32,000 nucleotides of DNA from Trichlorobacter lovleyi SZ (GTDB lineage Bacteria > Desulfobacterota > Desulfuromonadia > Geobacterales > Pseudopelobacteraceae). Positions within the stretch are counted from its first letter, which is position 1; every line of letters starts with the position of its first letter. Location: positions 780,001 to 812,000 of the forward strand of contig NC_010814.1 in assembly GCF_000020385.1 (NCBI RefSeq). Direction: 5' to 3'. The position numbers and the translations under genes are program-made. Below the pieces are notes generated by a model. That model saw nothing but the letters and a program-made list of their open reading frames with translations, ran no database searches and had not been told where the DNA came from. Of this stretch, positions 8,076 through 32,000 are shown piece by piece.

Positions 8076-8983
8076 AAAAGATCGTGTGGATGCTTCAGGT
8101 GGCGGTGCTCTATGGCTTTACCTGGGTGGTGGCTCTGGTGCCGGAACGTCTGTCTGAACGGTTCGGGGTCTGGACCGGTCTGCTACTGCGCCGGATATTG
8201 GGAAGTCGTCGGCGTATTGCAGAGGAAAATATCAGCCGCGTGCTTGAGCATATGCGGGCCCAGCCGGAATGGACCTGTACTATCCCGACAGCCGAGGGGA
8301 TTGCGCGGGAGGTGTTTTGCAATCTGGGGCGTTCACTGGTGGAAACCTGCCGTTTATATCACGGCAAAGGTGGCGGGCTGATTGACCGGATTGAGGTACG
8401 CGGCAGGGAGTATTATGATGCAGCCCGTGCCCAGGGAAAAGGAATTATCTTTCTGACCGGTCACTGCGGCAACTGGGAACTGGTTGCCCTGGCCTACGCC
8501 CGCTTGTTTAAGGAACCGCTTTCCGTGGTGGCCCGCCGCCAGAATAATCCGTATCTGAATACCATGGTAGAGCGGATGCGCCAGCACTACGACAACAGCG
8601 TTATCTACAAGGATAATGCCCTCAAGAACATGATTACCGTTATTCGCAGGAATGGAACCGTGGGACTGCTGGTGGATCAGACGGTGTTTCCTGAAGAGGG
8701 GTATCTGGTTGATTTTCTGGGCCGGCCGGCCTGGGCTTCCAAGGCTCCGGTCCTGATTGCCCGCAAGACCGGTGTCCCGATCGTACCGGCCTTTATTCAC
8801 CGGGAGGCCGGGCGCCATGTTATCGAGATCCACCCTCCGCTTCAGTTCGAAGGCAGTGCCGATGAACAGGGCTGGTGTGATGACGTTAAAACCTACTCCC
8901 GCATCATAGAGCGGTTTATTGTGGCCCATCCCACCGAGTGGTATTGGGTGCACAGGCGCTGGAAGAGAACCGAAGGTCTATGA
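8072..8983 (+). CDS. lpxL: Lipid A biosynthesis late (secondary) acyltransferase, LpxL/HtrB family
   Basis: N-terminal membrane anchor (VWMLQVAVLYGFTWVVALV), acyltransferase HX4E motif in GHCGNWE, 303 aa, located between lpxB and waaA. ATGA overlap with lpxB. Acyl-chain specificity cannot be read from the sequence. Confidence 0.82.
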   Translation: MKKIVWMLQVAVLYGFTWVVALVPERLSERFGVWTGLLLRRILGSRRRIAEENISRVLEHMRAQPEWTCTIPTAEGIAREVFCNLGRSLVETCRLYHGKGGGLIDRIEVRGREYYDAARAQGKGIIFLTGHCGNWELVALAYARLFKEPLSVVARRQNNPYLNTMVERMRQHYDNSVIYKDNALKNMITVIRRNGTVGLLVDQTVFPEEGYLVDFLGRPAWASKAPVLIARKTGVPIVPAFIHREAGRHVIEIHPPLQFEGSADEQGWCDDVKTYSRIIERFIVAHPTEWYWVHRRWKRTEGL

Positions 8984-9669
8984 ACAGCGGTCGCTTCTGG
9001 GCGGAAGTGTGGATGGTACTGGTGCTGCTGGTGATTGCCACCGGACTGCTGGCCCACAGCGGTGCGGATCTGCAGCTTGCGACGTACTTTTATCAGGCCG
9101 GAGGCTGGCCGACCGGTGAACAGTTCCCCTGGAAGCTGCTCTACCGGATTGACCGGATCCCGGCACTGCTGCTGGCATTGGGCTGGTTGGTTGTCGTGAT
9201 TCGCAGCTTTGCTGTCCCATCGCTTCGTCAGTGGCGGCGTGCCGGCATCTTCATGGTGCTGCTGCTGATCCTGGGGCCCGGGTTGTTAGTGAACAGTGTT
9301 TTCAAAGAACACTGGGGCCGTCCCCGTCCCCGTGAGGTCATACAGCTGGGGGGCAGCAAAGAGTTTCTGCAGCCCTGGCAGCCGGGAATCAGCGGCCAGG
9401 GACGCTCCTTCCCTTCAGGTCATTCTTCTGCTGCCTTTTATCTGTTGGCCCCCTGGTTTATCTATCGCCATCGTAAACCGTTTGCTGCGCGCTGCTGGCT
9501 TTCCGGCGGGATCGGGTTTGGTGTTCTGATGAGTGTGGCCCGGATTACCCAGGGAGGGCATTTCCTGACAGATTGTCTCTGGGCCTTTGGCATGGTCTGG
9601 CTGACCGGGCAGCTGCTGGCGGCCGTACTGTTGCCGGAACAGGAGAATGGCGAGGGGCTATCGTCATGA
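8980..9669 (+). CDS. PAP2-family membrane phosphatase (candidate lipid A 1- or 4'-phosphatase, LpxE/LpxF-like)
   Basis: All three PAP2 motifs are present: KEHWGRPRP (9304-9330), PSGH (9412-9423) and SVARITQGGHFLTD (9532-9573). Several hydrophobic segments. ATGA overlaps on both sides, with lpxL at 8980 and waaA at 9666. Confidence 0.8.
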   Translation: MNSGRFWAEVWMVLVLLVIATGLLAHSGADLQLATYFYQAGGWPTGEQFPWKLLYRIDRIPALLLALGWLVVVIRSFAVPSLRQWRRAGIFMVLLLILGPGLLVNSVFKEHWGRPRPREVIQLGGSKEFLQPWQPGISGQGRSFPSGHSSAAFYLLAPWFIYRHRKPFAARCWLSGGIGFGVLMSVARITQGGHFLTDCLWAFGMVWLTGQLLAAVLLPEQENGEGLSS

Positions 9670-10961: not shown

Positions 10962-12040
10962 CAGGGGCTGTCTGGTGGCGTGGCATGGCTGACGGGAGCA
11001 ATCGGAGTGCCGCTGCTTTTGCCCTGAAACTGCTGCTGGCTCCCTTTGCGCTGTTATACGGAACGGCACTGTGTATCAGGGCTCTGCTCTATCAGGCCGG
11101 TATTCTGGCCACTCACCGTCTGCCTTGTCCGGTCATTTCCGTCGGCAACCTCACAGTCGGCGGCACCGGCAAGACTCCGGTAACCATTCTGCTTGCCCGG
11201 GAACTGCAGCATCGCGGTTGCAGGGTTGCGGTCCTGTCCCGTGGTTACGGCGGCTCCCTTGAGGGGCAGGTCGCCGTGGTGAGCGACGGTGAATCATTGC
11301 TGCTTGGGCCAGGACAGGCCGGTGATGAACCCTGCCTGCTGGCCCGAAGCGTGGCAGGTCTGATCGTGGTTATCGGCTCAGATCGTTATCAGGCCGGTCT
11401 GACGGTACTGGAACGCTTTAGGCCTGATGTGCTGCTGCTGGACGATGGTTTTCAACATATCCGCCTGTACCGGGATCTGAATATCCTGCTGTTGGATGCA
11501 GCCCGTCCGTTCGGCAATGGCTGGACCGTACCGCTGGGGCTACTGCGGGAACCTCGTACGGCATTGAAACGGGCTGATCTGGCACTGTTTACCCGCTGTC
11601 ATGGTACTGAGATGCTGCCGCCGCTTACACTGCCAACCAGCCGGTCATACCACCGTCTGGCCAGCTTCCAGCTCTTAGTGACCGGAAATGCGGTGTCGCT
11701 TGAACAGCTGCAGCAGGGCCGGGTTGCGGCCTTTGCCGGTATCGCTGAGCCGTCGGCATTTTTTGAGGCGCTCCGGCAGATCGGTATTGAGCCGGTTGCG
11801 ACCCTCAGTCTACCCGACCATGAACCCTATCATGCCGCAGGGCTGCAGCAGCTGGAAGCTCTGGTTGCATCGGCAGAGCCGGACTGGCTGATCACCACAG
11901 AGAAGGACGGGATCAAGCTACAGGGGGGGGGATACGCCTGGAGTTCCCGTCTGGTAACCGCGCGTCTTGAGGTTCAGCTTGAGGACCGGGAACTGCTTGC
12001 AAGAGCCCTTGATAAACTGTTTCAAATCGGTCCTGAGTAA
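10958..12040 (+). CDS. lpxK: Tetraacyldisaccharide 4'-kinase LpxK
   Basis: P-loop [21 protein letters not shown] and LLDDGFQH motifs. ATGA overlap with waaA. Confidence 0.93.
11923..11931 (+). repeat. Homopolymeric G9 tract inside lpxK (codons QGGGY)
   Basis: Direct count: c a then nine consecutive g at 11923-11931. Confidence 0.95.
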
Positions 12041-12059
12041 GGCATACTCTTAAATTGCC

Positions 12060-13139
12060 ATGAAGAGTTCCCAACATGCTGAAATAGCCGGGCAGGCTGC
12101 CGTACAGAGGGTGCTGGTCCGGGCGGTTAACTGGATTGGTGACGCGGTCATGACCACTCCGGCGCTTATGGCAGTACGGGAAACCTATCCCCGGGCAGAG
12201 ATTACGCTGCTGGCCAACCCGCTGGTGGGACAACTGCTGCAGGGGCATCCGGCACTGGATCGGGTTATGCTGTTTGATCGTAAGTTAAAGCACCGTGGTC
12301 TGCTGGGGCGGTTGCGTCTGGCACGGCAACTGGCTGCGGAACGGTTCGATCTGGCGGTTATCCTGCCCAACTCCTTCGATTCTGCCCTGATCCCCTGGCT
12401 GGCAAGGATTCCGGTACGGATCGGCAAGGCCTCGGATGGACGCAGTCTGCTGTTGACCCACCGTTTTTACGAGCAGTCGCCGTCTGCAGAGCGGCACGAG
12501 GTGCAGTATTATTGTGAGCTGCTGGCGGCATTCGGCATCTCTGCTGAACAGTCGACACCAACACTCGCCGTCACTGCTCAGGAGGAGCAAGAGGTCTCAA
12601 CGCTGCTGGCAGAACATGGCATCTCTGCAGAGGAGATGGTACTTGGTGTCAATGCCGGTGCCAGTTTCGGCTCGGCAAAACGCTGGTACCCGGAACGGTT
12701 TGCCAACGTTGCCCAACGCCTTGCCGCCTCGTGGGGGGCGCGGGTTATCCTGTTCGGCGGCCCGGATGAGCAGGAGCTCGTGGCGGTGATCGAGCGGGAA
12801 ATGGCAGGAAACTGTCTGAATCTGGCAGGTAAGACCACGGTTCGTCAACTGATGGCGTTGATCAACCGCTGCAACTTTTTTGTCACCAATGATTCCGGGC
12901 CGATGCATATTGCTGCTGCCTTTGGCGTGCCGTTGGTGGCGATTTTTGGTCCCACGGACCATAGGGGTACGGCTCCCTGCTCTGATAAGGCGGTGATTGT
13001 GCGCCAGACGATTGACTGTGCCCCTTGTAAATTGCGGGTCTGTCCGACCGACCACCGTTGCATGACGGCGGTGACGGTGGAGGATGTAGTGAAGTCTGCA
13101 AACCTGTTATGGAAGAACAAAGGAGTCAAGACACGATGA
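12060..13139 (+). CDS. waaF: ADP-heptose:LPS heptosyltransferase II (GT9), WaaF-like
   Basis: By-eye alignment to E. coli WaaF along the whole length: [96 protein letters not shown]. Confidence 0.85.
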
Positions 13140-20530: not shown

Positions 20531-21460
20531 ATGAATATATTACTCTATCACTTTGGGTATCGCGGAGACATACTTGTTGTGGGACAGCACTTTACCCGAG
20601 AGCTGCTTACTCGCTACCCGCATGCCGATATAGACCTGATGGTGCGTCCAAGGATGGTTGAAGCCGGTGACTTCATGATGCCTTTGGGGGTGTACCGGGA
20701 TATACTTTGGGGAGAGAAAAAGGATTTCCATCTCTCCAAAGAGTCGTATGATCTTGCGTACATGATCGATGAAAATGTGTATCCTGAAGGAAATCTGAGA
20801 ACTCCATTCACTAAAGCAGGTTTCCCGTTCCGGCATCACAAATTGTCGTTAACAGTGATGCCGGAGGACAAAGCTCTGGCAACCCGTATTATTGCAGACC
20901 TCCCCCGTCCCATCATCGCTGTCCAGTCGGATATGTCAAGGAAATGGCCTGCTGAGCGATGTGCTGCACTTAATCAGCGACTTGCAGCTCTTGGCAGTTT
21001 GGTAACTCTCGGTCCAGATGAACGATATCCATCCTGTGAAAAACCACTTTCGTTTCTGCAGTCGGCAGCCCTTGCCGCCTCAGCTGACATATTCGTTGGA
21101 ATTGACTCGGGAATAGCCCACGCTGCGGCACTGATGGGGGTTCAAACGGTTTTGATTCCTCCCGTTTTTCCCGAATCCTGGATCTCGCCAACGGAATACG
21201 CCAATCCGTTTATTGCCGATGAAGCCTGCAGACATATTAGCATCCGTCCGCACCCTGAAGATTTTTGCGGGCATTATTTCTGCCTACGCCCAACGGCGCA
21301 AGGTGGTATCCAACCGCCGGGTGGTAACTCCTTATTGGTAAAATGTAGATGGAAAAAACGGTTCGGAATCTTCAAAGGGAACAGCTGTTTTAACAAAATC
21401 TCGGTGGACGCGTTATATGATGTGGTTGTCGCTGCCATGAAGAAACGCAGGCTGATCTGA
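20531..21460 (+). CDS. GT9-like glycosyltransferase (short heptosyltransferase-family member)
   Basis: N-terminal ILLYHFGYRGDILVVGQHFTRELLTRYPHADIDLMV and C-terminal IFVGIDSGIAHAAALMGVQTVLI match the two GT9 signature regions. At 309 aa it is shorter than canonical WaaC/WaaF. Confidence 0.6.
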   Translation: MNILLYHFGYRGDILVVGQHFTRELLTRYPHADIDLMVRPRMVEAGDFMMPLGVYRDILWGEKKDFHLSKESYDLAYMIDENVYPEGNLRTPFTKAGFPFRHHKLSLTVMPEDKALATRIIADLPRPIIAVQSDMSRKWPAERCAALNQRLAALGSLVTLGPDERYPSCEKPLSFLQSAALAASADIFVGIDSGIAHAAALMGVQTVLIPPVFPESWISPTEYANPFIADEACRHISIRPHPEDFCGHYFCLRPTAQGGIQPPGGNSLLVKCRWKKRFGIFKGNSCFNKISVDALYDVVVAAMKKRRLI

Positions 21461-21500
21461 GCCTCATTAGGTGTATACTGCGTAAAATATGAGGTCATGC

Positions 21501-22541
21501 ATGTCTAATGTGAAAATCATAGTTATCACGCTGGTAAAGGATGAGGCCTGGATGCTTGACAGGTTTCTTGCCACTTGCAGTGTGTTTGCCGACCACATTA
21601 TCGTGTCGGACGAGAGTACGGGGCTCGACAGCAGTCTCGAAATTTATAAAAAATATCCGAAAGTGACGCTGCACCACAACTCAGGAGCGCCCGTACGGGG
21701 AGACATCCGAAGAAAATTCGTCTTCGACGAGGCCCGCAAGATCTCCTGCGACAAGCGGATCATTATCGCGATAGACTCGGACGAGATTCTTTCCGCCAAT
21801 CTGCTGCACAGTCCGGAATGGCAGACTGTCCTTGCCGCGGAGCCGGGCACCCTCTTTCATCTGCAGTGGGTGAGTTTATGGAAGAATTGCAATTATTACC
21901 GGGTTGAAGCCAAGTATCAATTCGGCGGCTATAACCGGCAAATTTGGATAGACGACGGCGTTTCCGAAATCCCTGCCATCGGATATCAGGAAATGCATAT
22001 GGCATACAATCCCCTCCATGCCAGAACGCACGTATACCTCAACGAGATTGTTTGTTTGCACTATCAGTATTGCAATTGGGAGCGAATGGAGTCAAAGCAC
22101 CGCTACTATCGTGCCCATGAGAAGGCTGATATCGGGAAACTTTCAGACATAGCAATTTATCGGATATACGGCCATGCACATTCACGAAAGATTGAAGTCA
22201 AACCCTCGCTTTCTTGTTGGTTTGATGGTTGGATCTCCAGGGGGATTGACATGACAAGTACAGCGCGTGATGAGCTCACTCACTTTGATATAAGTGTGTT
22301 GAGACTATTTGAATCTCATGGGGCGGGCTTCTTTCTTAACCAGGATTTATGGAAGGTTGATTGGGAGTACCTTACAAATCGCGCCAAGGAGCTTGGATTG
22401 TTATCCGCTGATTTTAAGTATACACGGCCTCCAAAGACGATCCGAAGCAGATTGTTTCACGCGTACATGAAAACGGCTTTTGATGTTAAAATTTTGAAAT
22501 CAGTTGAAAAAAGATTATTTCCAAAAGGTCGTGTATATTAA
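21501..22541 (+). CDS. Putative GT-A fold glycosyltransferase (family 2-like), otherwise uncharacterised
   Basis: VKIIVITLVKDEAWMLDRFLATCSVFADHIIVSDESTG and the DxD-type motif IIAIDSDEIL. ATG 21501 has GAGG 6 nt upstream, so it was preferred over ATG 21489. Confidence 0.5.
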   Translation: MSNVKIIVITLVKDEAWMLDRFLATCSVFADHIIVSDESTGLDSSLEIYKKYPKVTLHHNSGAPVRGDIRRKFVFDEARKISCDKRIIIAIDSDEILSANLLHSPEWQTVLAAEPGTLFHLQWVSLWKNCNYYRVEAKYQFGGYNRQIWIDDGVSEIPAIGYQEMHMAYNPLHARTHVYLNEIVCLHYQYCNWERMESKHRYYRAHEKADIGKLSDIAIYRIYGHAHSRKIEVKPSLSCWFDGWISRGIDMTSTARDELTHFDISVLRLFESHGAGFFLNQDLWKVDWEYLTNRAKELGLLSADFKYTRPPKTIRSRLFHAYMKTAFDVKILKSVEKRLFPKGRVY

Positions 22542-22577: not shown

Positions 22578-23351
22578 ATGAAAGTAGTCATTCTTGCCGG
22601 CGGTTTTGGCACACGTATTAGCGAAGAGTCCCATCTGAAACCAAAACCGATGATTGAAATCGGAGAACGGCCGATACTTTGGCATATCATGAAGACTTAT
22701 TCCCACTATGGATTTAACGATTTTATCATATGCTTGGGCTACAAGGGGTACTGCATTAAGGAGTACTTTGCTCATTATTTCCTTCATGAGTCCGATGTCA
22801 CCTTTGATTTTACCAATGAGAATCAAAGAATAATACACAACCATTCTGCAGAACCGTGGCGTGTCACTCTGGTGAATACTGGCATTGAAACCATGACCGG
22901 TGGTCGGGTTAAGAGAATCAGCAGATATATCGGCGATGAGCCGTTTATGCTCACCTATGGCGATGGTGTTGCAGATATAAGTATTGATAATTTGGTGGAA
23001 TATCATAAAAAGCACGGTAAGCTTGCTACGGTTAGCTCTATTCAGCCAGCCGGACGTTTTGGAGCCCTCGATCTTGATGCGGATAACCTGATCCATGGAT
23101 TCAAGGAAAAGCCCAAAGGTGATGGAGCCTGGATTAATGGTGGTTTTTTCGTGATGCAGCCGGAAGTGTTCAGGTATATCGACGGGGACACTACTGTTCT
23201 GGAGAGGGAACCGCTTGAGAGATTAGCACACGATGGACAGTTAGTGGCTTACAAGCATACTGGTTTCTGGCAACCGATGGATTCAATGCGGGATAAAAAT
23301 CAGCTTGAAGAACTATGGAAAACCGGGTCTGCCCCCTGGAAGGTGTGGTAA
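22578..23351 (+). CDS. rfbF: Glucose-1-phosphate cytidylyltransferase
   Basis: MKVVILAGGFGTRISEESHLKPKPMIEIGERPILWHIMKTYSHYGFNDFIICLGYKGY, LTYGDGVADI and FWQPMDSMRDK are near-canonical RfbF/DdhA motifs. GGAGA precedes the ATG. Confidence 0.95.
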   Translation: MKVVILAGGFGTRISEESHLKPKPMIEIGERPILWHIMKTYSHYGFNDFIICLGYKGYCIKEYFAHYFLHESDVTFDFTNENQRIIHNHSAEPWRVTLVNTGIETMTGGRVKRISRYIGDEPFMLTYGDGVADISIDNLVEYHKKHGKLATVSSIQPAGRFGALDLDADNLIHGFKEKPKGDGAWINGGFFVMQPEVFRYIDGDTTVLEREPLERLAHDGQLVAYKHTGFWQPMDSMRDKNQLEELWKTGSAPWKVW

Positions 23352-24424
23352 TGGGGTTCTGGCAAAACAAGAAAGTCTTTGTCACCGGTCATACCGGATT
23401 CAAAGGAAGTTGGCTGACTCTTTGGCTGCTCAAGCTTGGTGCCGAGGTGCATGGTTATGCTCTGGAACCGCCAACCGAGCCGAGTCTCTTCAACCTGTTG
23501 GGCCTCAACTCTCCCTCCCCACAACTTTCCAGTCAGATTGCCGATATCCGAGATAGCTCCGCTCTTGCAACTGCTATACAGCAAGCCCAGCCGGAAATTG
23601 TCATTCATATGGCAGCTCAACCGTTGGTACGAGATTCGTACCTTATTCCTGTAGACACTTATGCTATTAACATCATGGGCACAGTTAATATGCTTGAGGC
23701 GATTCGCCACTGTCCAAGCGTCAGGGCGGTGGTCAATGTTACTACTGACAAGTGTTACGAAAATAGGGAATGGGTCTGGGGATATCGCGAAGACGAGCCG
23801 ATGGGGGGATTTGATCCCTACTCCAGCAGTAAAGGGTGTTCAGAGCTGGTCACTGCAGCATACCGGCAATCATATTTTAACTCCCGACAACCCACGCAGC
23901 ATGGAGTAGCGTTGGCCTCCGCCAGAGCGGGTAATGTGATTGGGGGCGGTGATTGGGCAGCCGACCGACTGGTTCCTGATATTGTCCGGGCTTTGTTGAA
24001 TAAGGAACCGGTTAGCATTCGCAATCCCCTTGCTGTTCGCCCCTGGCAACATGTTCTTGAACCACTTTCCGGCTATTTATGTCTGGCACGGCACCTATAT
24101 GAGCATGGAACTGCCTTTGCTGAGGGCTGGAACTTCGGACCAGCGGATGAAGATGCCAAGCCGGTCGCCTGGATTGTCGATCATCTCTGCAAGCTTTGGG
24201 GCAATTCAGCCTCATATACAATCGTTAGTGGTGATCACCCCCATGAAGCTCAGTATCTGAAACTGGATTGCTCCAAAGCAAAGATGCGTCTGGGCTGGAA
24301 ACCGCGATGGAATCTGGAAACTGCGCTGGAACAGGTTGTTACATGGACAAAGGCATATAGCAAAAAGGAGTCGATACGCACCATATGTCTGAACCAAATA
24401 GCGAGTTACGAGGCTCAAGCGTAA
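23351..24424 (+). CDS. rfbG: CDP-glucose 4,6-dehydratase
   Basis: FWQNKKVFVTGHTGFKGSWLTLWLLKLGAEVHGY, TTDKCYEN, DPYSSSKGCSE (YxxxK), RAGNVIGGGDW. TAATG junction with rfbF at 23351. The ORF-track start at 23315 overlaps rfbF. Confidence 0.94.
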   Translation: MGFWQNKKVFVTGHTGFKGSWLTLWLLKLGAEVHGYALEPPTEPSLFNLLGLNSPSPQLSSQIADIRDSSALATAIQQAQPEIVIHMAAQPLVRDSYLIPVDTYAINIMGTVNMLEAIRHCPSVRAVVNVTTDKCYENREWVWGYREDEPMGGFDPYSSSKGCSELVTAAYRQSYFNSRQPTQHGVALASARAGNVIGGGDWAADRLVPDIVRALLNKEPVSIRNPLAVRPWQHVLEPLSGYLCLARHLYEHGTAFAEGWNFGPADEDAKPVAWIVDHLCKLWGNSASYTIVSGDHPHEAQYLKLDCSKAKMRLGWKPRWNLETALEQVVTWTKAYSKKESIRTICLNQIASYEAQA

Positions 24425-24444
24425 TTCGAATTGAGGAGTATGTT

Positions 24445-25785
24445 TTGAGTACAGACCAGAAAGAACTGCTACGACAGCGCGTGGTGAAAGCCGCATGTGA
24501 ATATTATCAGCATGCTCACGTTCACCATAAAGAATTTGAACCTGGGGACCGCATTCCATACGCAGGCAGAATTTTTGATGATGCGGAAATAAGTGCCTTG
24601 ATCGATTCGTCCCTTGAGTTCTGGCTCACTAGCGGTCGATATGCGGAAAAATTCGAAAAAGAGTTTGCTGATTATATCGGCGTGCAGCATTGCTCACTGA
24701 CCAACTCGGGTTCGTCGGCCAATTTACTGGCTTTTATGGCCCTTACTTCTCCAAAACTTGGAGAGCGCAGGATACATAGGGGGGATGAGGTCATCACTGT
24801 AGCTGCAGGCTTCCCTACAACAGTTGCGCCTATCATCCAGTACGGCGCAGTGCCGGTTTTCGTAGATGTCTGTCTGCCCACTTACAATATTGATGTCACC
24901 CGGCTTGATGCCGCCCTTTCTGATAAAACCAAGGCGGTCATGGTTGCCCATACTCTTGGCAATCCCTTTGACATCACCGCAGTGAAGGCGTTTTGCGACA
25001 AGCACAACCTGTGGCTTATAGAAGACAACTGTGATGCCCTTGGGTCACGCTATTTATTTAGAGGTCAATGGTGCTATACCGGCACGATCGGGCATATCGG
25101 CACCTCTAGTTTCTACCCGCCTCACCACATGACTATGGGGGAGGGGGGCGCGGTTTATACCAATGATCCCTTGATAAAGCGCCTGATCGAATCGTTTCGT
25201 GACTGGGGACGTGACTGTTGGTGCCCGTCAGGACGGGACAACACCTGCAGTAACCGCTTTGGTCAGCAGTTTGGTGAACTGCCGTTTGGGTACGACCATA
25301 AGTATGTCTACTCCCACTTCGGCTATAATCTGAAGGTGACTGATATGCAGGCTGCCATTGGCTGTGCTCAACTACAAAAACTGCCCGGTTTTGTTGAAGC
25401 ACGCAAACGAAACTGGCAGATGCTGCGAGATGGACTGGCAGATCTGCAGGATCAACTTATTTTGCCAGAGGCGGCTGAAAACAGCGACCCTTCCTGGTTT
25501 GGGTTCCTGCTGACTGTACGTAGGGAATCAGGATTTACACGGGATAGATTGGTTGCCCAGCTTGAATTGCACGGCATTCAAACCCGTATGCTCTTTGCCG
25601 GTAATCTGACCAAGCACCCTTGCTTTGATGAGATGCGAAAAAGCGGTGAAGGGTATCGAGTGGCGGATGATCTTTCTGTAACTGACCAGATTATGCGTGA
25701 TACTTTCTGGGTAGGGGTGTATCCGGGGATGACGGAGCCAATGATTGAGCATATGATCAGTGTTATGAGGCAGCAGTTGAGGTGA
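24445..25785 (+). CDS. rfbH: CDP-4-keto-6-deoxy-D-glucose 3-dehydrase (E1; RfbH/DdhC/AscC type, PMP and Fe-S dependent)
   Basis: By-eye alignment to Salmonella RfbH over the whole length: LTNSGSSANLLAFMALTSPKLGERR, GDEVITVAAGFPTTVAP, SFYPPHHMTMGEGGAV (His replaces the aminotransferase Lys), DWGRDCWCPSGRDNTCSNRFGQQFG (Fe-S cysteines), YNLKVTDMQAA, DPSWFGF. TTG 24445 lies 6 nt after GAGGAG and is preferred. The ORF-track ATG at 24385 overlaps rfbG by 40 nt. Confidence 0.9.
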   Translation: MSTDQKELLRQRVVKAACEYYQHAHVHHKEFEPGDRIPYAGRIFDDAEISALIDSSLEFWLTSGRYAEKFEKEFADYIGVQHCSLTNSGSSANLLAFMALTSPKLGERRIHRGDEVITVAAGFPTTVAPIIQYGAVPVFVDVCLPTYNIDVTRLDAALSDKTKAVMVAHTLGNPFDITAVKAFCDKHNLWLIEDNCDALGSRYLFRGQWCYTGTIGHIGTSSFYPPHHMTMGEGGAVYTNDPLIKRLIESFRDWGRDCWCPSGRDNTCSNRFGQQFGELPFGYDHKYVYSHFGYNLKVTDMQAAIGCAQLQKLPGFVEARKRNWQMLRDGLADLQDQLILPEAAENSDPSWFGFLLTVRRESGFTRDRLVAQLELHGIQTRMLFAGNLTKHPCFDEMRKSGEGYRVADDLSVTDQIMRDTFWVGVYPGMTEPMIEHMISVMRQQLR

Positions 25786-25786
25786 T

Positions 25787-26665
25787 ATGAATATTTTTTT
25801 AACGGGTGGTAGCGGCTTTATTGGAAAAAATATTATCGAGACGCTAGGCGGTACATACAATATAATTGCCCCGTCAAGTAAGGAACTCGACCTGACGGAT
25901 GAACAGGCTGTTCAAACGTTCTTCCGTGTGAATTCAATTGATATTGTCATTCACGGCGCTGTCAAGCCAGGGCACCGTAATGCTAAAGACCCGTCCAATC
26001 AGCTGTATGTAAATACGCGGATGTATTTTAATATCGTTCGGAATGCAGGAAGATTCCAACGCCTGATTTTTCTTGGGTCGGGGGCTGTGTACGACGTCAG
26101 TCAATCAATAGCAAAAGTGGATGAAGATACCTTTGACACCCATGTGCCGGCAGACGAACATGGCTTTTCGAAATATATTATTGCCAAACATATAAAACAC
26201 CTGAATGATGCTGTCGCGTTGAATATTTTTGGTATATTTGGAAAATATGAGGATTACGCGATCCGATTCATATCCAATGCCATTTGCAAGGCCCTTTTTG
26301 ATCTCCCTATTACCATCAGGCAAAACCGGCTATTTGATTATCTCTATATTGATGATCTTATGCCGGTATTAGAGCATTTCATTCATAACAAACCCCTATC
26401 CTCCACTTACAATGTAACACCAGAGTCTTCAGTTGAGCTGACAACCGTTGCAGAACTGGTTAGAGCCCGTTCTGGGAAAGATCTGCCCATCGTGGTTGCC
26501 ACCCATGGGCTTGGTTTGGAATACAGCGGCAGCAATGCAAGGCTTTGCTCTGATCTTCCTCAAATGGCGTTTACGCCGCTTGTCGCAGCAATAGACTCCT
26601 TGTACTCGTGGTACGAACAACAAAAAGACAGCATTAACCGTGATGCACTTTTAACTGACAAATAG
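25787..26665 (+). CDS. Extended-SDR NAD(P)-dependent sugar-nucleotide reductase, GDP-fucose-synthase (Fcl)-like; candidate 4-keto or branch-keto reductase (YerF-like role)
   Basis: IFLTGGSGFIGKNI Rossmann motif. KELDLTDEQAVQTFFRVNSIDIVIHGAVKPG parallels Fcl ([31 protein letters not shown]). LIFLGSGAVY parallels LLFLGSSCIY. Catalytic YxxxK is in SKYIIAKH, and there is a YLYIDDL motif. Sits between rfbH and the ThDP enzyme. Confidence 0.7.
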   Translation: MNIFLTGGSGFIGKNIIETLGGTYNIIAPSSKELDLTDEQAVQTFFRVNSIDIVIHGAVKPGHRNAKDPSNQLYVNTRMYFNIVRNAGRFQRLIFLGSGAVYDVSQSIAKVDEDTFDTHVPADEHGFSKYIIAKHIKHLNDAVALNIFGIFGKYEDYAIRFISNAICKALFDLPITIRQNRLFDYLYIDDLMPVLEHFIHNKPLSSTYNVTPESSVELTTVAELVRARSGKDLPIVVATHGLGLEYSGSNARLCSDLPQMAFTPLVAAIDSLYSWYEQQKDSINRDALLTDK

Positions 26666-26718
26666 TCACTGATAACACAGTGGTAGTGTCCGGGAAACAT
26701 TCAGCGAGGTTTGCATGT

Positions 26719-28515
26719 ATGGAAATGAAGGTTTCAGATTACATTGCGTCATTTATGGTTGAAAACGGCATCACCGACCTGTTTACCGTGACGGGTGGTG
26801 GTGCAATGCACCTTAATGATTCATTGGGTAACCATCCTGAGCTGGTTTCAACCTATAACCATCATGAGCAGGCATGTGCAATTGCGGCAGAAGCGTATGC
26901 CCGGCTAACCGGCAGGATTGCTTTGGTCTGTGTGACCAGTGGTCCTGGTGGCACCAATGCGATTACTGGTGTTATGGGAGGGTGGGTCGATTCAATCCCG
27001 ATGTTTGTAATTTCGGGGCAAGTTAAGTTTTCAACAACTATTGCTTCTACCAACGTGCCGCTTCGACAGTTAGGGGACCAAGAGTTTAATATCGTCGATT
27101 CCGTGCGGTGTATGACCAAGTATGCAGTGATGTTGACGGAGCCTGAGTCCATTGCCTACCACCTTGAGCGAGCTCTCTTCCTTGCCGGACATGGCAGGCC
27201 AGGCCCTGTGTGGCTTGACATCCCGCTGAATGTACAGGGGGCTCTCATTGAAACAGATGCGCTCCAGCATTACGACCCGTCTGAAGATGCTGTTCAGGTG
27301 GTTGCGCCACCTTCCAATGATGTGTATTCCCAGCTTATTGAAAAAATTTGTAATGCCCGAAAACCTGTAATACTCGCCGGTAGCGGTATTCGTCTTTCCG
27401 GTAGTCATGATGTCTTTATACAGCTACTTGAAAAACTTAACATCCCTGTTGTCACAGCGTGGAATGCCCATGACAATCTATGGGACGATCACCCCTTGTA
27501 TTGTGGGCGTCCAGGCACTATCGGCACACGAGGCGGTAATTTTGTTGTCCAAAACTGTGACCTGCTGCTATCGCTTGGTTGCCGGATGAATATTCGCCAG
27601 ATAAGTTATAATTGGGAAAATTTTGCGAAAGATGCGTATCTCGTCGCCGTAGATATTGATGCGGGAGAATTGAAAAAGCCAACATTAACAGTAGATATGC
27701 CGATTCATGCGGATTTGGGTGATTTTTTGCCGGGGCTGCTTGGGGCGATGCAAGCCGATCATAAGCTTGGAAATATCGAATGGTTGGAGTGGTGTCGGAA
27801 GATAAACCAGAAGTATCCTGCGGTACAGCCCCATCACTACACCCCCCACTCTCCAGTCAACCCGTATGTTTTCATGGACAGGCTCTCACAGTATCTTGAT
27901 GAGGGAGATGTGACCGTGACAGGAAACGGCAGTGCCTGTGTGTGCTCATTCCAGGCCATGGTTATCAAAAAAAATCAGCGGCTCTTCACAAACTCAGGGT
28001 GTGCCAGCATGGGCTACGGTCTTCCCGCTGCGCTTGGTGCTGCTGTCGCTCTTGGCGGCAAACGGGTAATCTGCCTTGACGGTGATGGTAGTATTCAGAT
28101 GAATTTGCAGGAGTTACAGACTATTATTCACAATAAACTCAACTTGAAAATATTCTGGTTAAATAACGACGGGTACCACTCCATTCGTCAAACCCAAACC
28201 AATATTTTTAATGCGAGGTTTTGCGGCGTAAATGAAACCAGCGGTATAAGTTTTCCCAGTGCGGATAAAATTGCACGAGCATATGGTTTTGAATTTATTA
28301 AAATTGATGCCGTTGAAGACATGGATGAAAAAATAAAGAAAGTCTTGCTATCGGATACCTCTATTGTGTGCGAAGTGATTCTAAATCCTGCTCAGGGGTT
28401 TGAGCCCAAGTTGTCTTCACGCATACTTCAGGACGGTACAATGGTTTCGCCATCGCTTGAAGACATGTTTCCATTTTTGAGCGCTGAAGAAATGAAAATG
28501 AATGCTTACAAATAA
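26719..28515 (+). CDS. Thiamine-diphosphate-dependent enzyme, acetolactate-synthase large-subunit-like (YerE-like candidate C-branching enzyme)
   Basis: N-terminal Pyr domain (DLFTVTGGGAMHLNDS, HEQACAIAAEAYARLTG, VTSGPGGTNAITGV). C-terminal ThDP-binding motif GDGSIQMNLQELQTI...NNDGY (28081-28174). Length 598 aa. ATG 26719 has GAGG 8 nt upstream. Confidence 0.85.
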   Translation: MEMKVSDYIASFMVENGITDLFTVTGGGAMHLNDSLGNHPELVSTYNHHEQACAIAAEAYARLTGRIALVCVTSGPGGTNAITGVMGGWVDSIPMFVISGQVKFSTTIASTNVPLRQLGDQEFNIVDSVRCMTKYAVMLTEPESIAYHLERALFLAGHGRPGPVWLDIPLNVQGALIETDALQHYDPSEDAVQVVAPPSNDVYSQLIEKICNARKPVILAGSGIRLSGSHDVFIQLLEKLNIPVVTAWNAHDNLWDDHPLYCGRPGTIGTRGGNFVVQNCDLLLSLGCRMNIRQISYNWENFAKDAYLVAVDIDAGELKKPTLTVDMPIHADLGDFLPGLLGAMQADHKLGNIEWLEWCRKINQKYPAVQPHHYTPHSPVNPYVFMDRLSQYLDEGDVTVTGNGSACVCSFQAMVIKKNQRLFTNSGCASMGYGLPAALGAAVALGGKRVICLDGDGSIQMNLQELQTIIHNKLNLKIFWLNNDGYHSIRQTQTNIFNARFCGVNETSGISFPSADKIARAYGFEFIKIDAVEDMDEKIKKVLLSDTSIVCEVILNPAQGFEPKLSSRILQDGTMVSPSLEDMFPFLSAEEMKMNAYK

Positions 28516-28524
28516 GGGTTACCA

Positions 28525-30120
28525 ATGAAATCTATTCAAATTCTTGATTGTACGCTACGTGACGGCGGTTTTGTCAATGACTGGAATTTTGGGCTGGGAA
28601 GCATGAAAAGCATTATCAGTCGGTTGGATAAAGCCGGCGTTGATATGGTTGAAATAGGCTTTATTGACGAGCGGCGTTCATATGATCCAAACAGGGCAAT
28701 TCAACCGGATACCCAGTCATTTCAAGCGGTATTACAGGGTCTTGATATCCGCAACTCATTGATACTTGGTATGGTTGATTATGGCACTTGCGACATTGAT
28801 AAGATAGCCCCCAAAGAGCATTCATATATCGACGGGATCAGGGTTATTTTTAAGAAAAAAGATCAAGATGCTGCACTCCGGTATCTGCAACAGATTAAGG
28901 CCAAAGGTTACAAAATATATGTTAACCCGGTATCTATTACTGGATACTCAGATGAAGAAATCTGCTCACTAATAGGCAAAATAAACGGTCTTGACCCTGA
29001 AGGGGTCTCTATTGTTGATACTTACGGGCTTATGCACCGGAAGGATCTCCTGCACTATTTCCGGCTGTTCGATAAATACCTGAGCAATCACATTACTTTA
29101 GGATACCATGCGCATAATAATTTCCAGCTTGTTTACGCGAATTCGATAGAGCTATGCGAATTGTTGGGTGAACGCAATATTATTATTGACAGTTCTCTCT
29201 ATGGCATGGGCAAAGGTGCGGGGAATGCAAATACCGAATTGATCGCCATGTACTACAATGAAAATATTAACAGCAAGTATGAAGTAGAACATCTGCTTGA
29301 AGCAATTGATGTTGATATTCTTAAGGAATATGCTAAGGCCCCGTGGGGTTATTCGCTGTCGTATTATCTTGCTGCATCTAACGACTGCCATCCTGATTAT
29401 GCGAAGTATTTGCTATCAAAGAAGACACTTGCGGTTAAGTCAGTCAATGAACTGCTTACTTCCCTGCCAGTTACCCATAAGCTGGCATTCAACAGAGAAC
29501 TGATTGAAAGGCTATATGTAGAATACCAGGACGTAGCTTGTAATGATGCCGCTGCTTATAGAAGACTTGCTGCAGAGATAACAGGCCGTAAGGTTCTTCT
29601 TATTGGGCCAGGTGCGTCCATAGTTAATGATGCAGATGCTATAATGTCTTATATTAAACAGAATAGTCCCGTCCTTATTTCAATTAATTTTATTAATGAC
29701 ATGTACCCTATTGACTATGTATTCATGGGAAATTCAAAAAGGTACAGCCAGTTTTTCCATAATCTGCATGGTACTAACAGAAACGCAAAAATAATTACGA
29801 CCTCAAATATTACGGCTTCTGGTGAGCATATTGACTTCGTATTCAACTATGGAAAACTTCTTGACGAGACTGAGGTTGTAAGAGACAACCCACTGCTTAT
29901 GATGTTAAACATATTAACTAAATTAGGCTGTGTAGATGTGACAATTGCCGGATTTGATGGCTATGACCAGAACGTAGCGCAGAATTACTATGATCAATAT
30001 ATTCCATTCTTATACTGTCATGATAACGTGCTGTTGAGAAATAGCGCTATAGCTAATAAACTTAAAGTTATTTCAAAAGATATGTCTATTCGTAGTATTA
30101 CCAAAACATTGTATTTATAA
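28525..30120 (+). CDS. Two-domain fusion: N-terminal DRE-TIM metallolyase (HMGL-like aldolase/pyruvate carboxyltransferase domain) plus C-terminal DUF115 (MptE/Maf)/GT42-sialyltransferase-like domain
   Basis: N-terminal domain: ILDCTLRDGG (metal-binding Asp), GYHAHNN (HxH metal ligands), GMGKGAGNANTEL. C-terminal domain, from about residue 345 (nt ~29557): VLLIGPGASI...VLISINF...YVFMGN and LNILTKLGCVDVTIAGFDGY. This parallels the GxGPS / N / G-x-D-x-Y layout of DUF115 and Cst-type transferases, as recalled from memory. Confidence 0.65.
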   Translation: MKSIQILDCTLRDGGFVNDWNFGLGSMKSIISRLDKAGVDMVEIGFIDERRSYDPNRAIQPDTQSFQAVLQGLDIRNSLILGMVDYGTCDIDKIAPKEHSYIDGIRVIFKKKDQDAALRYLQQIKAKGYKIYVNPVSITGYSDEEICSLIGKINGLDPEGVSIVDTYGLMHRKDLLHYFRLFDKYLSNHITLGYHAHNNFQLVYANSIELCELLGERNIIIDSSLYGMGKGAGNANTELIAMYYNENINSKYEVEHLLEAIDVDILKEYAKAPWGYSLSYYLAASNDCHPDYAKYLLSKKTLAVKSVNELLTSLPVTHKLAFNRELIERLYVEYQDVACNDAAAYRRLAAEITGRKVLLIGPGASIVNDADAIMSYIKQNSPVLISINFINDMYPIDYVFMGNSKRYSQFFHNLHGTNRNAKIITTSNITASGEHIDFVFNYGKLLDETEVVRDNPLLMMLNILTKLGCVDVTIAGFDGYDQNVAQNYYDQYIPFLYCHDNVLLRNSAIANKLKVISKDMSIRSITKTLYL

Positions 30121-30131
30121 GGTTGCGTCAA

Positions 30132-30797
30132 ATGGGAAAGACAGTATTTATAACTGGTGGTAGTAGAGGTATTGGCAAAGCGATAGTTGATGCATTTTCC
30201 AGAAATGGATATACAATAATAGCGCCAACAAGGGCTGAAATGGACCTTTCTTCTGATAGTTCAGTATTGAATTATTTTGAACGTAACAAAATACAAGTTG
30301 ATTGTATTGTCAATAATGCTGGTATAAATCCACTATCTCAAATTGAAAATGTAAATGATTGCGATATTGAAGAAGCTATAAATATTAATCTTAAAGCACC
30401 TATACTCATTGTGAGATCTCTTGTCTCGAGTATGAAAGAACGGAAATACGGACATATTGTTAATGTCTCATCTATTTGGGGAGTAGTTTCAAAAGAAAAG
30501 AGAACAGTTTATTCAATTACAAAAAATGGCTTACATGGTCTTACCAACACACTCGCCGTTGAGCTTGGCGCGTATAACATCCTCGTAAATACCGTATGTC
30601 CAGGTTTCACTAATACGGAGCTTACTAAAAAGAATGTCTCCACTGATGAGGCAAAAGCTATTGCCACAAATATTCCTCTCGGCAGATTTGCAGAGCCTGC
30701 TGAAATTGCTTCACTGATATATTTTCTTGGATCTGAACAAAATTCTTATATTACGGGTCAGAAAATAGTCATAGATGGAGGTTTTACAGTACTATGA
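30132..30797 (+). CDS. Classical short-chain dehydrogenase/reductase (FabG-like)
   Basis: TGGSRGIGKAIV (TGxxxGxG), NNAG, catalytic Ser in VNVSSIWG and YSITK (YxxxK), C-terminal GQKIVIDGGF. ATG 30132 was preferred over TTG 30123. Confidence 0.88.
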   Translation: MGKTVFITGGSRGIGKAIVDAFSRNGYTIIAPTRAEMDLSSDSSVLNYFERNKIQVDCIVNNAGINPLSQIENVNDCDIEEAININLKAPILIVRSLVSSMKERKYGHIVNVSSIWGVVSKEKRTVYSITKNGLHGLTNTLAVELGAYNILVNTVCPGFTNTELTKKNVSTDEAKAIATNIPLGRFAEPAEIASLIYFLGSEQNSYITGQKIVIDGGFTVL

Positions 30798-31864
30798 ATA
30801 TTAATTCTTATAATAAAACATACACTGTTGATACAGTAGATGTTATCGACTTGCAAAATTTTGTTGGTAGTTCTGTATACCTTATTGTTTTTGATAAGAA
30901 AGTGTATGATATATATAAAGGCACTGCTTTTAAGGACTTAGATGTAAGTAGAGCTGTTTTTTTAGAGGCCGATGAGAATTGTAAGACTATTGATACTGCT
31001 GTTGAAATATGCAAAATAATGGCTGATATTCCATTTAATAAAAATAGTATCTTAATATCTATTGGGGGGGGAATCATACAGGATATAACTGGGTTTGCTG
31101 CCAATATATACAATAGAGGGATACGATGGATTTTTATTCCAACTACTCTTCTTGCGCAATGTGATAGTTGTATAGGCGGCAAAACATCATTAAATCTTAT
31201 GAATTATAAAAATATTCTGGGAACATTTTATGCGCCGGACAGGATAATGATCGATTTGAATTTTGTAACCACCTTGTCAGAAGACGATTATTTAAGTGGA
31301 CTTGGAGAAGTGGCAAAATTCAATATAATGGCTGCACATGACGGTATAGAGCTACTCGAAAGACACATTGATAGGCTTCTGCACCGAGATATTGAATGTC
31401 TGCGTGCCTTTTTGAAACGTTCTTTGGAGTTTAAGAAAAAATTTATTGAAGAGGATGAGTTTGATAAGGGTGTACGTAACCTCCTTAATTTTGCCCATAC
31501 CTTTGGTCATGCTTTTGAGTCTGTAAGCCATTACGCCATCCCGCACGGTCAGGCAGTTACATTGGGTTTGCTGATGGCTAATATGATCTCCTTTGATCGT
31601 GGGCTTCTTGACCACAATCTGAAGTGTCGGATAGAAAAACTGTGTGTACGGCTAATTTCAGTAAAGCTTGACTACCATTGGTTTGAGCCGAGTAGTATTA
31701 TTGGGGCAATGAAGAGGGATAAAAAGAGGACATCTGAGCAGTTGACGGCAGTGCTCTTTAAAAGCGATTTAGGGCTTGAAATTGTTCATGACTTAAGGCC
31801 TGAAGAAGTAGAGCGAAGCTTGCTTGAGCTGATTTCGTATCTTAAATTGAGCAAGCTTTGCTAA
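30794..31864 (+). CDS. 3-dehydroquinate-synthase-like sugar phosphate cyclase / metal-dependent NAD oxidoreductase superfamily protein
   Basis: GGGIIQDITGFAANIYNRGIRWIFIPTTLLAQCDSCIGGKTSLN parallels the DHQS motif GGGvvgDlaGFaAatymRGvrfiqvPTTLLAqvDSSvGGKtgvN. YKNILGTFYAP is present. The three metal-ligand positions are conserved: GLGEVAKF (Glu), NFAHTFGHAFE (His), IPHGQAV (His). ATGA overlap with the SDR gene. Confidence 0.8.
   Translation: MNINSYNKTYTVDTVDVIDLQNFVGSSVYLIVFDKKVYDIYKGTAFKDLDVSRAVFLEADENCKTIDTAVEICKIMADIPFNKNSILISIGGGIIQDITGFAANIYNRGIRWIFIPTTLLAQCDSCIGGKTSLNLMNYKNILGTFYAPDRIMIDLNFVTTLSEDDYLSGLGEVAKFNIMAAHDGIELLERHIDRLLHRDIECLRAFLKRSLEFKKKFIEEDEFDKGVRNLLNFAHTFGHAFESVSHYAIPHGQAVTLGLLMANMISFDRGLLDHNLKCRIEKLCVRLISVKLDYHWFEPSSIIGAMKRDKKRTSEQLTAVLFKSDLGLEIVHDLRPEEVERSLLELISYLKLSKLC
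31064..31071 (+). repeat. Homopolymeric G8 tract inside the DHQS-like gene (codons 91-93, the GGG of the nucleotide-binding loop)
   Basis: Direct count: att then eight consecutive g at 31064-31071, in a gene that is otherwise very AT-rich. Confidence 0.95.
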
Positions 31865-31937
31865 GCCTTTGTATTGTGTACAGAGATGGTATTCACTTTG
31901 TAGCATACCTCAACCAGTACATACAGAGGTGTTGACT

Positions 31938-32000
31938 TTGAACAAAAATATTCCTTTTCTTGATCTGAAGGCTGCTTATCTGGAACTTAAAGAAGAGCTG
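31938..32000 (+). CDS. DegT/DnrJ/EryC1-family sugar aminotransferase, 3'-truncated by the window edge (first ~21 codons only)
   Basis: The frame reads (L/M)NKNIPFLDLKAAYLELKEEL, the characteristic N-terminus of this family (compare gnnB IPMVDLKTQYHHLKSEI in this window). TTG 31938 lies 8 nt after AGAGG. The GTG at 31929 is an in-frame alternative. Too short to appear in the ORF track. Confidence 0.55.
   Translation, partial: MNKNIPFLDLKAAYLELKEEL

Follow-up and report, generated by a model that had tools for sequence, protein, structure and literature searches.

We have found that an operon in the lipid A/core region of Trichlorobacter (formerly Geobacter) lovleyi, which we analysed within a 32-kb stretch of the genome that we refer to as the window, carries a pair of genes whose place is taken by a phosphatase gene in many related operons. 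The pair encodes a FabG-like short-chain dehydrogenase/reductase (SDR) and a protein related to AroB, the 3-dehydroquinate synthase (DHQS), and it is an optional module, alternative at the same position to a phosphatase of the haloacid dehalogenase (HAD) superfamily. The backbone of the operon is that of a YerE-type branched-sugar pathway and was already known; the alternation between phosphatase and lyase is new. The mutual exclusivity of the two is most simply read as a sign of a phosphate ester intermediate, and it implies that the donor is phosphorylated and loses its phosphate in one of two ways, hydrolysis or elimination. We put at roughly 0.55 the probability that the operon directs the synthesis of a cytidine diphosphate (CDP)-activated 3,6-dideoxyhexose with a long polyhydroxyalkyl branch at C4, built by a YerE-type route in which the phosphate of the donor is eliminated.

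The evidence for the alternation comes from metagenome contigs, which we scanned with the family-specific C-terminal domain of the aldolase encoded in the operon, a search that returned 74 loci. An AroB-like gene is present in just 10 of the 34 loci with adequate flanks, and in loci that lack it a HAD-superfamily phosphatase gene, of subfamily IA or of subfamily IIA (the two being unrelated to each other), lies beside the aldolase gene. Counted over the 38 loci whose core is flanked on each side by 2.2 kb or more, 18 have only the AroB-like gene, 20 have only a phosphatase gene of the two HAD types queried, and none has both or neither (Fisher p = 3e-11). The FabG-like SDR follows the same division, being detected in 16 of the 18 AroB-positive loci and in 0 of the 20 HAD-type loci. 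The split does not trace back to one inherited event, since 48 sequences of the thiamine diphosphate (ThDP)-dependent enzyme form 46 clusters at 90% identity of which none is mixed for the AroB or HAD state, parsimony on the ThDP tree calls for at least eight switches between the states, and ThDP enzymes from opposite states can be as much as 86% identical.

The AroB-related protein (30794-31864, plus strand), a putative sugar-phosphate phospho-lyase, matches the NCBIfam family TIGR04425 (‘AroB-related putative sugar phosphate phospholyase (cyclizing)’) with 440 bits against a cutoff of 400 and falls below the aroB equivalog (TIGR01357; 266 bits, cutoff 305). Among proteins in the PDB, true DHQS is nonetheless its closest relative (170 bits), ahead of EEVS (104), DOIS (98) and DDGS (89). 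It is identical to eight genuine AroB proteins at R108, D124, K130, N140, E172, K175, K214, R228, N232, H235, H239, H251, K310 and K311, positions whose catalytic, metal-, phosphate- and carboxylate-binding roles we assume from the structure of the Aspergillus nidulans DHQS; we take K250 and R264 of that enzyme, which are K214 and R228 here and invariant, to be carboxylate binders. With all of its active-site positions kept, the enzyme is predicted to be competent for DHQS chemistry, and this retention, together with its being closer to true DHQS, indicates a substrate that resembles 3-deoxy-D-arabino-heptulosonate 7-phosphate (DAHP), that is, one formed from pyruvate and a tetrose 4-phosphate. 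The family also has 26 substitutions of its own (for example C126, T144, F176, N177, K215 and E219), and its genomic context is never shikimate-like, its members being found in glycan operons, where SDR, ThDP-enzyme and aldolase genes accompany them. Its partner is a classical FabG-like SDR of 221 residues (30132-30797, plus strand; adh_short_C2 and adh_short) encoded directly upstream by an overlapping gene. In the literature we found nothing on TIGR04425 or on this combination of genes. We considered and rejected the idea that the AroB-like enzyme makes dehydroquinate for a quinate-like substituent: a carbocyclic acid is no donor for a ThDP enzyme, and minimal loci such as L094 are without an enzyme to attach it.

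More distant relatives of the pair occur elsewhere. A scan of the genome collection with an alignment of the AroB-like family, whose motifs are shared with housekeeping aroB, gave 80 loci, of which L007 is the sole true member and L008, L009 and L012 hold distant AroB-like relatives. In L008 (5755-11070) and L009 (5044-11631) another conserved cassette surrounds a distant SDR and AroB-like pair (38-41% identity), and contains a CTP_transf_3 cytidylyltransferase, a SIS isomerase, a D-2-hydroxyacid dehydrogenase, a GFO/IDH/MocA oxidoreductase and, in L009, an HpcH aldolase, all without a ThDP enzyme. This cassette looks like a route to an omega-modified ulosonic acid activated with cytidine monophosphate (CMP). 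In L012 (8655-18198), from an uncultured gammaproteobacterium, a NeuB-family synthase and a Hydrolase_3 HAD are encoded together with AroB-like, ThDP and SDR genes, methyltransferases, a GT2 glycosyltransferase and a PMT_2 (GT-C) protein, and there is neither rfbF nor rfbG within 10 kb.

The aldolase that adjoins the module is a two-domain protein of 531 residues (28525-30120, plus strand), of which residues 4-260 match PF00682 (HMGL-like, DRE-TIM) and the C-terminal domain begins at about 29530. Its best family matches are to the 4-hydroxy-2-oxovalerate aldolases NF006049 and TIGR03217, both below cutoff, and by sequence it is distant from DmpG and BphI (51 bits to 1nvm). The AlphaFold2 model (predicted local distance difference test score (pLDDT) 82.7) has an N-terminal DmpG-like TIM barrel, and its best fold match is DmpG (1nvm; E 1.8e-11). 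The closest solved relative of the aldolase domain, at 89 bits, is PDB 3dxi, the N-terminal domain alone of Bacteroides vulgatus BVU_2661. The C-terminal domain of about 200 residues (29530-30120) has no Pfam match even at E < 10; it is modelled with a pLDDT of 86, with weak fold matches to SteA (9hmz; E 4.8e-4, TM-score 0.50) and to the archaeal hydroxymethyldihydropterin pyrophosphokinase MptE (8sd5). We note that this MptE/DUF115-like domain has the conserved motifs GPGxS, SINF, TSN, DNP and AGFDGY.

The place of the 531-residue aldolase can be filled by other proteins. In loci L089, L093 and L094 it is taken by an unrelated HpcH/HpaI aldolase of 257-265 residues, and loci with an HpcH-type aldolase do without the C-terminal MptE-like domain; in the more distant L012 the NeuB-family synthase takes its place. 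Enzymes of these three classes condense pyruvate or phosphoenolpyruvate with an aldehyde to give a 3-deoxy-2-ulosonic acid. Since the formation of such an acid (a 4-hydroxy-2-keto acid) is all that the HMGL-like, HpcH/HpaI and NeuB-like enzymes share, the kind of intermediate that is made at this step is fixed.

The third core component is a ThDP-dependent enzyme of 598 residues (26719-28515, plus strand) with three TPP domains and a canonical GDG motif, encoded next to the aldolase in 34 of the 34 metagenome loci with enough flanking DNA. It scores under every NCBIfam cutoff for acetolactate synthase. Its best match in the PDB is JanthE (8rph; 418 bits, E 5e-124), aligned over the full length (3-590), followed by PpYerE (5ahk; 258 bits) and then by true acetohydroxyacid synthases (AHAS; at most 222 bits). 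By these matches the enzyme, a putative carboligase, belongs to the YerE-like subclass that branches ketosugars and not to AHAS. The entry 8rph is identified as JanthE, the physiological substrates of which are not known, in PMC12188165.

The genes for the sugar that would accept the branch lie at the upstream end of the operon. They are rfbF/ddhA, for glucose-1-phosphate cytidylyltransferase (22578-23351; TIGR02623, 434 bits, cutoff 300), rfbG/ddhB, for CDP-glucose 4,6-dehydratase (23351-24424, with an alternative start at 23315; TIGR02622, 520 bits, cutoff 278; annotated as 357 or 369 residues on sister contigs), and rfbH/ddhC (E1), for CDP-4-keto-6-deoxyglucose 3-dehydrase (24385-25785; NF011936, 745 bits, cutoff 423), all on the plus strand. 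All three genes for CDP-4-keto-3,6-dideoxy-D-glucose are thus above their equivalog cutoffs, and with family assignments by hidden Markov model at this level a chance match is of no concern. RfbH contains SFYPPHHMT, with His replacing the lysine that would bind pyridoxal phosphate, and a C-x-C-x7-C motif, DCWCPSGRDNTC, both of which we take to be signatures of E1/ColD dehydrases. Between rfbH and the ThDP gene lies a gene for an extended SDR of 292 residues (25787-26665, plus strand; Pfam Epimerase and RmlD_sub_bind), whose relatives in the PDB are weak (an RmlD-like protein at 42 bits, GDP-fucose synthase at 36 bits). By analogy with YerF and ErwF (PMC9306805) we regard this protein as a candidate YerF-like reductase of the C1' carbonyl of the branch. 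Orthologues are present in L087 and L093, and a different extended SDR of about 305 residues substitutes for it in other loci; extended SDRs of about 300 residues occur in 8 of the nine AroB-like loci described below, and extended SDRs in 22 of the 25 roomy loci picked by the aldolase.

These genes travel together. We compared the window locus with eight further loci that encode AroB-like relatives at 48-71% identity, from Smithella, Clostridium sp. LP20, Eubacteriales, Candidatus Limiplasma and metagenomic bacteria, annotating each by tBLASTn with the window proteins; together the nine loci cover Thermodesulfobacteriota (Geobacterales and Syntrophales) and Firmicutes. The ThDP enzyme, the aldolase and the FabG-like SDR, the last always overlapping and directly upstream of the AroB-like gene, are present in all nine, rfbF in eight, an orthologue of rfbG in seven and rfbH in five. 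The initial annotation, whose named genes were all confirmed at their positions, with equivalog scores for rfbFGH, had allowed that the distal genes might form an independent pathway; the counts for the ThDP enzyme, aldolase, SDR and rfbF, together with the invariable presence of the ThDP enzyme in the loci picked by the aldolase, show that they do not. It had also assigned C3 deoxygenation to rfbH, a step that stands for the window in so far as rfbH is present but that is optional in the family, given the five loci of nine, and for which no E3 (ddhD) gene accompanies rfbH here. Several loci also carry a GtrB/ArnC-like GT2 enzyme, GtrA and a GT-C enzyme, which suggests transfer by way of a polyprenyl phosphate carrier. 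In Clostridium sp. LP20 (L089, 14609-21062) genes for flagellin and the flagellar basal body directly follow the cassette, and the branched sugar of that organism probably decorates flagellin and not lipopolysaccharide (LPS).

The pathway that we favour builds on a scheme, in part proposed and in part demonstrated, for erwiniose (ErwE/F/I/J), Mycobacterium marinum caryophyllose and gastriose, in which CDP-4-keto-3,6-dideoxyglucose comes from the ddh genes and a 4-hydroxy-2-keto acid from a pyruvate aldolase; the acid is decarboxylated by a YerE-like ThDP enzyme, which joins it at the C4 ketone, and a YerF-like reductase completes the branch (Steitz et al. 2022, PMC9306805). ErwE, MMAR_2332 and MyGE take 4-hydroxy-2-keto acids made by an aldolase, with the ddh genes and the reductase in the same cluster, and M. 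marinum mutants in MMAR_2331-2333 are without caryophyllose (PMC9306805). More than 200 such clusters have been found in silico, according to a 2025 review (PMC12247030). The initial annotation had credited the aldolase with a further C-C bond, beyond the two-carbon branch added by YerE; according to the published scheme, the aldolase instead makes the long donor itself, which the ThDP enzyme transfers. Its statement that the biosynthetic genes for caryophyllose and caryose were undefined is outdated for caryophyllose, for which genes and logic are published (PMC9306805), and continues to hold for caryose, the biosynthetic origin of which is stated to be unknown (PMC9092360).

Applied to the window, the scheme would run as follows. 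Together with an electron donor from a gene elsewhere, RfbF, RfbG and RfbH would give CDP-4-keto-3,6-dideoxy-D-glucose, a step for which the equivalog-level membership of the three proteins argues. The class II pyruvate aldolase would join pyruvate to a phosphorylated aldose, in the simplest case a tetrose 4-phosphate, to form a 3-deoxy-2-ulosonate omega-phosphate. The AroB-like enzyme would then act by DHQS chemistry, with transient oxidation by NAD+, beta-elimination of phosphate and re-reduction, and its partner SDR would reduce the leftover ketone to leave a terminal CH3-CHOH. By homology to ErwE, JanthE and YerE, the ThDP enzyme would decarboxylate the 2-keto acid and add the resulting acyl anion to the C4 ketone, the 292-residue extended SDR would, by analogy with YerF, reduce the C1' carbonyl of the branch, and a glycosyltransferase of the same low-GC island may place the sugar on the LPS core. 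With elimination and ketoreduction and no ring closure, the donor would be a 3,7-dideoxyheptulosonate and the branch a 1,3,4,5-tetrahydroxyhexyl group. If the aldose phosphate has four carbons, a chain length that we infer, the predicted product is 3,6-dideoxy-4-C-(1,3,4,5-tetrahydroxyhexyl)hexose, which is the constitution of caryophyllose (PMC5706390), and the sister operons of the HAD type would make its 6'-hydroxy analogue. Of the C-branched, chain-extended or carbocyclic deoxysugars that the initial annotation had proposed, a chain-extended C4-branched 3,6-dideoxyhexose of the caryophyllose type is therefore the product that fits best, and a carbocyclic one is less likely.

Several points weigh against this pathway. 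DHQS chemistry on a DAHP-like free acid normally ends in cyclisation, which would consume the 2-keto group that the ThDP enzyme requires, and nothing that we found in the AroB-like sequence would explain why the reaction should halt ahead of the aldol step. The gene content fits three timings for the loss of the phosphate: ahead of the aldolase reaction, on the free keto acid, or once coupling has taken place. No gene for an E3 reductase (ddhD/ascD) and no ferredoxin-reductase-like open reading frame (ORF) is present, either within the window or over the following 10 kb on L001, a near-identical contig (NCBI GCA_036805505.1) that we used to read past the window end, so that a housekeeping reductase would have to complete C3 deoxygenation. 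The phosphatase counts cover the two queried types and not every HAD; a Hydrolase_3-type HAD adjoins the AroB-like gene in L012, and in L093 one lies at a distance of 6 kb. A need for an AroB-like enzyme is not reported for the published caryophyllose clusters, and in the literature we did not find a structure for the LPS or other glycans of T. lovleyi.

A first alternative is that the ring is in fact closed. A phosphorylated 2-keto acid could be coupled first, after which the AroB-like enzyme would close a cyclohexanone onto the C1' carbonyl and the SDR would reduce the ring ketone, to give a 4-C-(tetrahydroxycyclohexyl) deoxyhexose in keeping with the carbocyclic idea of the initial annotation. 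This reading makes cyclisation the natural outcome of a wholly conserved DHQS active site, still requires the SDR for the ring ketone, and accords with ThDP enzymes that are up to 86% identical across the two types of locus, as would be expected if a shared phosphorylated donor were tailored after coupling. It is set against the invariant K214 and R228, the presumed carboxylate binders, which favour a free acid over a bulky CDP-sugar; it leaves the extended SDR without an obvious task in most loci; and the phosphatases that substitute for the pair usually act on small sugar phosphates, to judge by analogy with KdsC and the Neu5Ac-9-phosphate phosphatase. Furthermore, in L008 and L009 the relatives of the pair are accompanied by a cytidylyltransferase of the CMP-ulosonate type, which needs an intact 2-keto acid, and this favours readings without cyclisation. 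We think it unlikely that the TIGR04425 paralogue closes a six-membered carbocycle, whether on the C4 branch or on a precursor still usable by the ThDP enzyme, and the carbocycle-closing role that had been given to the DHQS-like enzyme is doubtful in view of its interchange with a HAD phosphatase and of the L008 and L009 cassettes. A deoxyhexose with a C-linked cyclitol would, to our knowledge, be a class of monosaccharide never described; were this reading true, anaerobes such as T. lovleyi, Smithella and gut Clostridia would bear such a sugar on their LPS, flagellin or wall polymers.

Cyclisation would pose no problem if the tailoring came before the aldolase, since a tetrose has no carbonyl at ring-closing distance. 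Here the AroB-like enzyme and the SDR would make an omega-deoxy aldose (a 4-deoxytetrose) from an aldose phosphate, for instance erythrose 4-phosphate, and the deoxy aldose would then condense with pyruvate; the HAD-type loci would obtain a free aldose from their phosphatase, and the final sugar would be the same as that of the pathway with elimination on the ulosonate. The exclusivity of phosphatase and AroB-like enzyme fits equally well, as does the published donor of caryophyllose, made from pyruvate and a free aldehyde (PMC9306805). Known ulosonate pathways, however, condense before they dephosphorylate, and the whole DHQS pocket, including its presumed carboxylate binders, would go unexplained for a substrate of four carbons. 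We consider this order of events improbable, and rank it behind ring closure.

Far less probable is that two unrelated pathways merely adjoin, with rfbFGH and the 292-residue reductase making a 3,6-dideoxyhexose of the abequose or paratose type and the genes from the ThDP enzyme to the aminotransferase making a separate (amino)carbocycle. The extended SDR is not separable by sequence from CDP-4-keto reductases, and the G+C content at third codon positions (GC3) is 0.22-0.39 for the aldolase, SDR and AroB-like genes as against 0.43-0.51 for rfbF through the ThDP gene. In different phyla and in varied gene orders the CDP-glucose genes nevertheless accompany the core of ThDP enzyme and aldolase, minimal loci such as L094 are without a second activation enzyme (a kinase or nucleotidyltransferase), the aminotransferase is not conserved, and the ThDP enzyme falls in the YerE-like clade that branches ketosugars. 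A reading specific to caryose can be dismissed, since on paper its 4,8-cyclo skeleton needs an extension at C6 that is barred by the 6-deoxy product of the 4,6-dehydratase.

The eight genes at 22578-31864 form one tightly packed operon, with intergenic distances of -40 to +73 nt, and with the aminotransferase gene that follows them all nine lie on the plus strand. Our promoter and terminator scan was uninformative, as no intergenic terminator-like site stands out (12 seen against 11.9 expected). The operon lies within a compositionally foreign island: G+C content drops from about 58% to 34-50% from about 19,000 to the end of the window, and the GC3 of the operon genes is 0.22-0.51, compared with 0.65-0.75 for the genes downstream of the window. 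The island also holds GT2 and GT9-like genes and two ORFs (20531-21460 and 21489-22541), both without a Pfam match. Sister contigs whose cassette proteins are identical or nearly so diverge just upstream of rfbF (including L001, 1-1752), several having a Methyltransf_21 gene in place of the window's 350-residue ORF, and this divergence points to variation of the glycan at the strain level.

Two proteins of the window have 99-100% identical counterparts under the name of T. lovleyi in public sources. Ahead of the operon, the window reads on the plus strand, 5' to 3', BamA, Skp, LpxD, FabZ and LpxA; then a GnnA/GnnB-like pair, LpxB, a late acyltransferase and a PAP2 phosphatase; then WaaA, LpxK, a GT9 heptosyltransferase, Gmd and MsbA, followed by several glycosyltransferases. 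The pair between lpxA and lpxB (4889-6924), a GFO/IDH/MocA oxidoreductase and a DegT aminotransferase, has the arrangement of GnnA and GnnB, which make 2,3-diamino-2,3-dideoxyglucose lipid A. In the lipid A block, the gene for the PAP2-family phosphatase (8938-9669) immediately follows that for the late acyltransferase, and its product may remove the 1- or the 4'-phosphate of lipid A.

At its downstream end the window includes the first 21 codons (31938-32000, plus strand) of a gene for a DegT-family aminotransferase, which on L001 is complete (11145-12266; 373 residues) and has a SFYPGK lysine motif. Its GC3 of 0.51 is nearer to that of the island than to that of the downstream genes. The initial annotation had counted this aminotransferase as an enzyme of the pathway, an assignment that does not hold, as the gene is not beside the cassette in L087, L089, L090 or L092-L095; having ruled it out as a core member, we regard it as peripheral, serving either lineage-specific tailoring or the next pathway. 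Directly beyond it on L001 (12406-19703, or about 33199-40496 in window numbering) is a second set of unusual-sugar genes with the normal G+C content of the host. These encode an HddC-like nucleotidyltransferase, an HddA-like GHMP kinase, an epimerase/dehydratase, a split transketolase (273 and 316 residues), a B12-binding radical SAM protein whose best match is HpnJ/BchE-like, and a second E1/ColD-like dehydratase of the pyridoxamine phosphate type (413 residues), with His replacing Lys and a Cys-rich motif. The set looks like a separate, second unusual-sugar pathway. Since C-branched sugars are also made by ThDP enzymes of the transketolase type (PMC12247030), the split transketolase downstream raises the possibility that the strain makes two different branched sugars.

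Caryophyllose and other long-branched sugars serve as surface antigens in pathogens, and their assembly has been outlined just recently. Our analysis suggests that the donor of the branch may begin as a phosphorylated ulosonic acid derived from a sugar phosphate of central metabolism, and that its phosphate may leave by two exits, hydrolysis, which would retain a terminal hydroxyl group, or DHQS-type elimination with reduction, which would produce a terminal methyl group. If true, the second exit would account for the unexplained terminal deoxy group of caryophyllose-type sugars. TIGR04425, a widespread and uncharacterised family of AroB paralogues, thereby gains a functional hypothesis for which the HAD-type sister operons are a natural control, and the locus suggests what the ThDP enzymes of the JanthE clade, which are used in biocatalysis, may take as donors in the cell. 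The distribution of the cassette points to such sugars being common among anaerobes, of which termite-gut Treponema, Smithella, gut Clostridia and Geobacterales are examples.

Of the systems that have been described, the erwiniose cluster of Pectobacterium atrosepticum (ErwE, ThDP enzyme; ErwF, reductase; ErwI, BphI-like aldolase; ErwJ, dehydrogenase; and the ddh genes; PMC9306805) resembles the operon in having the genes for CDP-4-keto-3,6-dideoxyglucose, a YerE-like ThDP enzyme, an adjoining aldolase of the HMGL/BphI type, an NAD(P)H reductase and a position in an LPS locus. It differs in that the window has neither an acetaldehyde dehydrogenase of the ErwJ type nor an E3 gene, and in that the window's aldolase is distant from DmpG and BphI and has an extra MptE-like domain. 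The added SDR and AroB-like pair, or the HAD phosphatase in sister loci, implies a phosphorylated sugar aldehyde and not acetaldehyde. The caryophyllose genes of M. marinum, encoding the HpcH-type aldolase MMAR_2331, the ThDP enzyme MMAR_2332 and the glycosyltransferase MMAR_2333 (PMC9306805, PMC5706390), would lead to a product of the same constitution as the one predicted here, and HpcH-type aldolases are found in some of the sister loci; the published scheme leaves the terminal deoxy group unexplained, whereas the window predicts an eliminative dephosphorylation. JanthE of Janthinobacterium sp. HH01 (8rph) is YerE-like, as is the window enzyme, and takes long 2-keto acids and ketone acceptors (PMC12188165), but it has a CDG motif where the window enzyme has GDG, and does not fix the substrate of the latter.

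The AroB-like enzyme shares with AroB, DOIS, EEVS and DDGS the same two-domain fold family and all of the catalytic, metal and phosphate positions, and differs from AroB and the sugar-phosphate cyclases in forming a family of its own (TIGR04425) that resides in glycan operons, has a FabG-like SDR as a partner and is exchangeable with a phosphatase. In the logic of Kdo (KdsA/KdsC) and of Neu5Ac- and Kdn-9-phosphate synthesis, a sugar phosphate and a C3 unit give a 3-deoxy-2-ulosonate phosphate, from which a dedicated HAD phosphatase then removes the phosphate. The HAD-type sister loci look alike in this respect. The operon of T. lovleyi would depart from this logic in that its product is not CMP-activated but is decarboxylated and joined to a sugar through a C-C bond by the ThDP enzyme, and in that the phosphatase is swapped for a lyase and a reductase.

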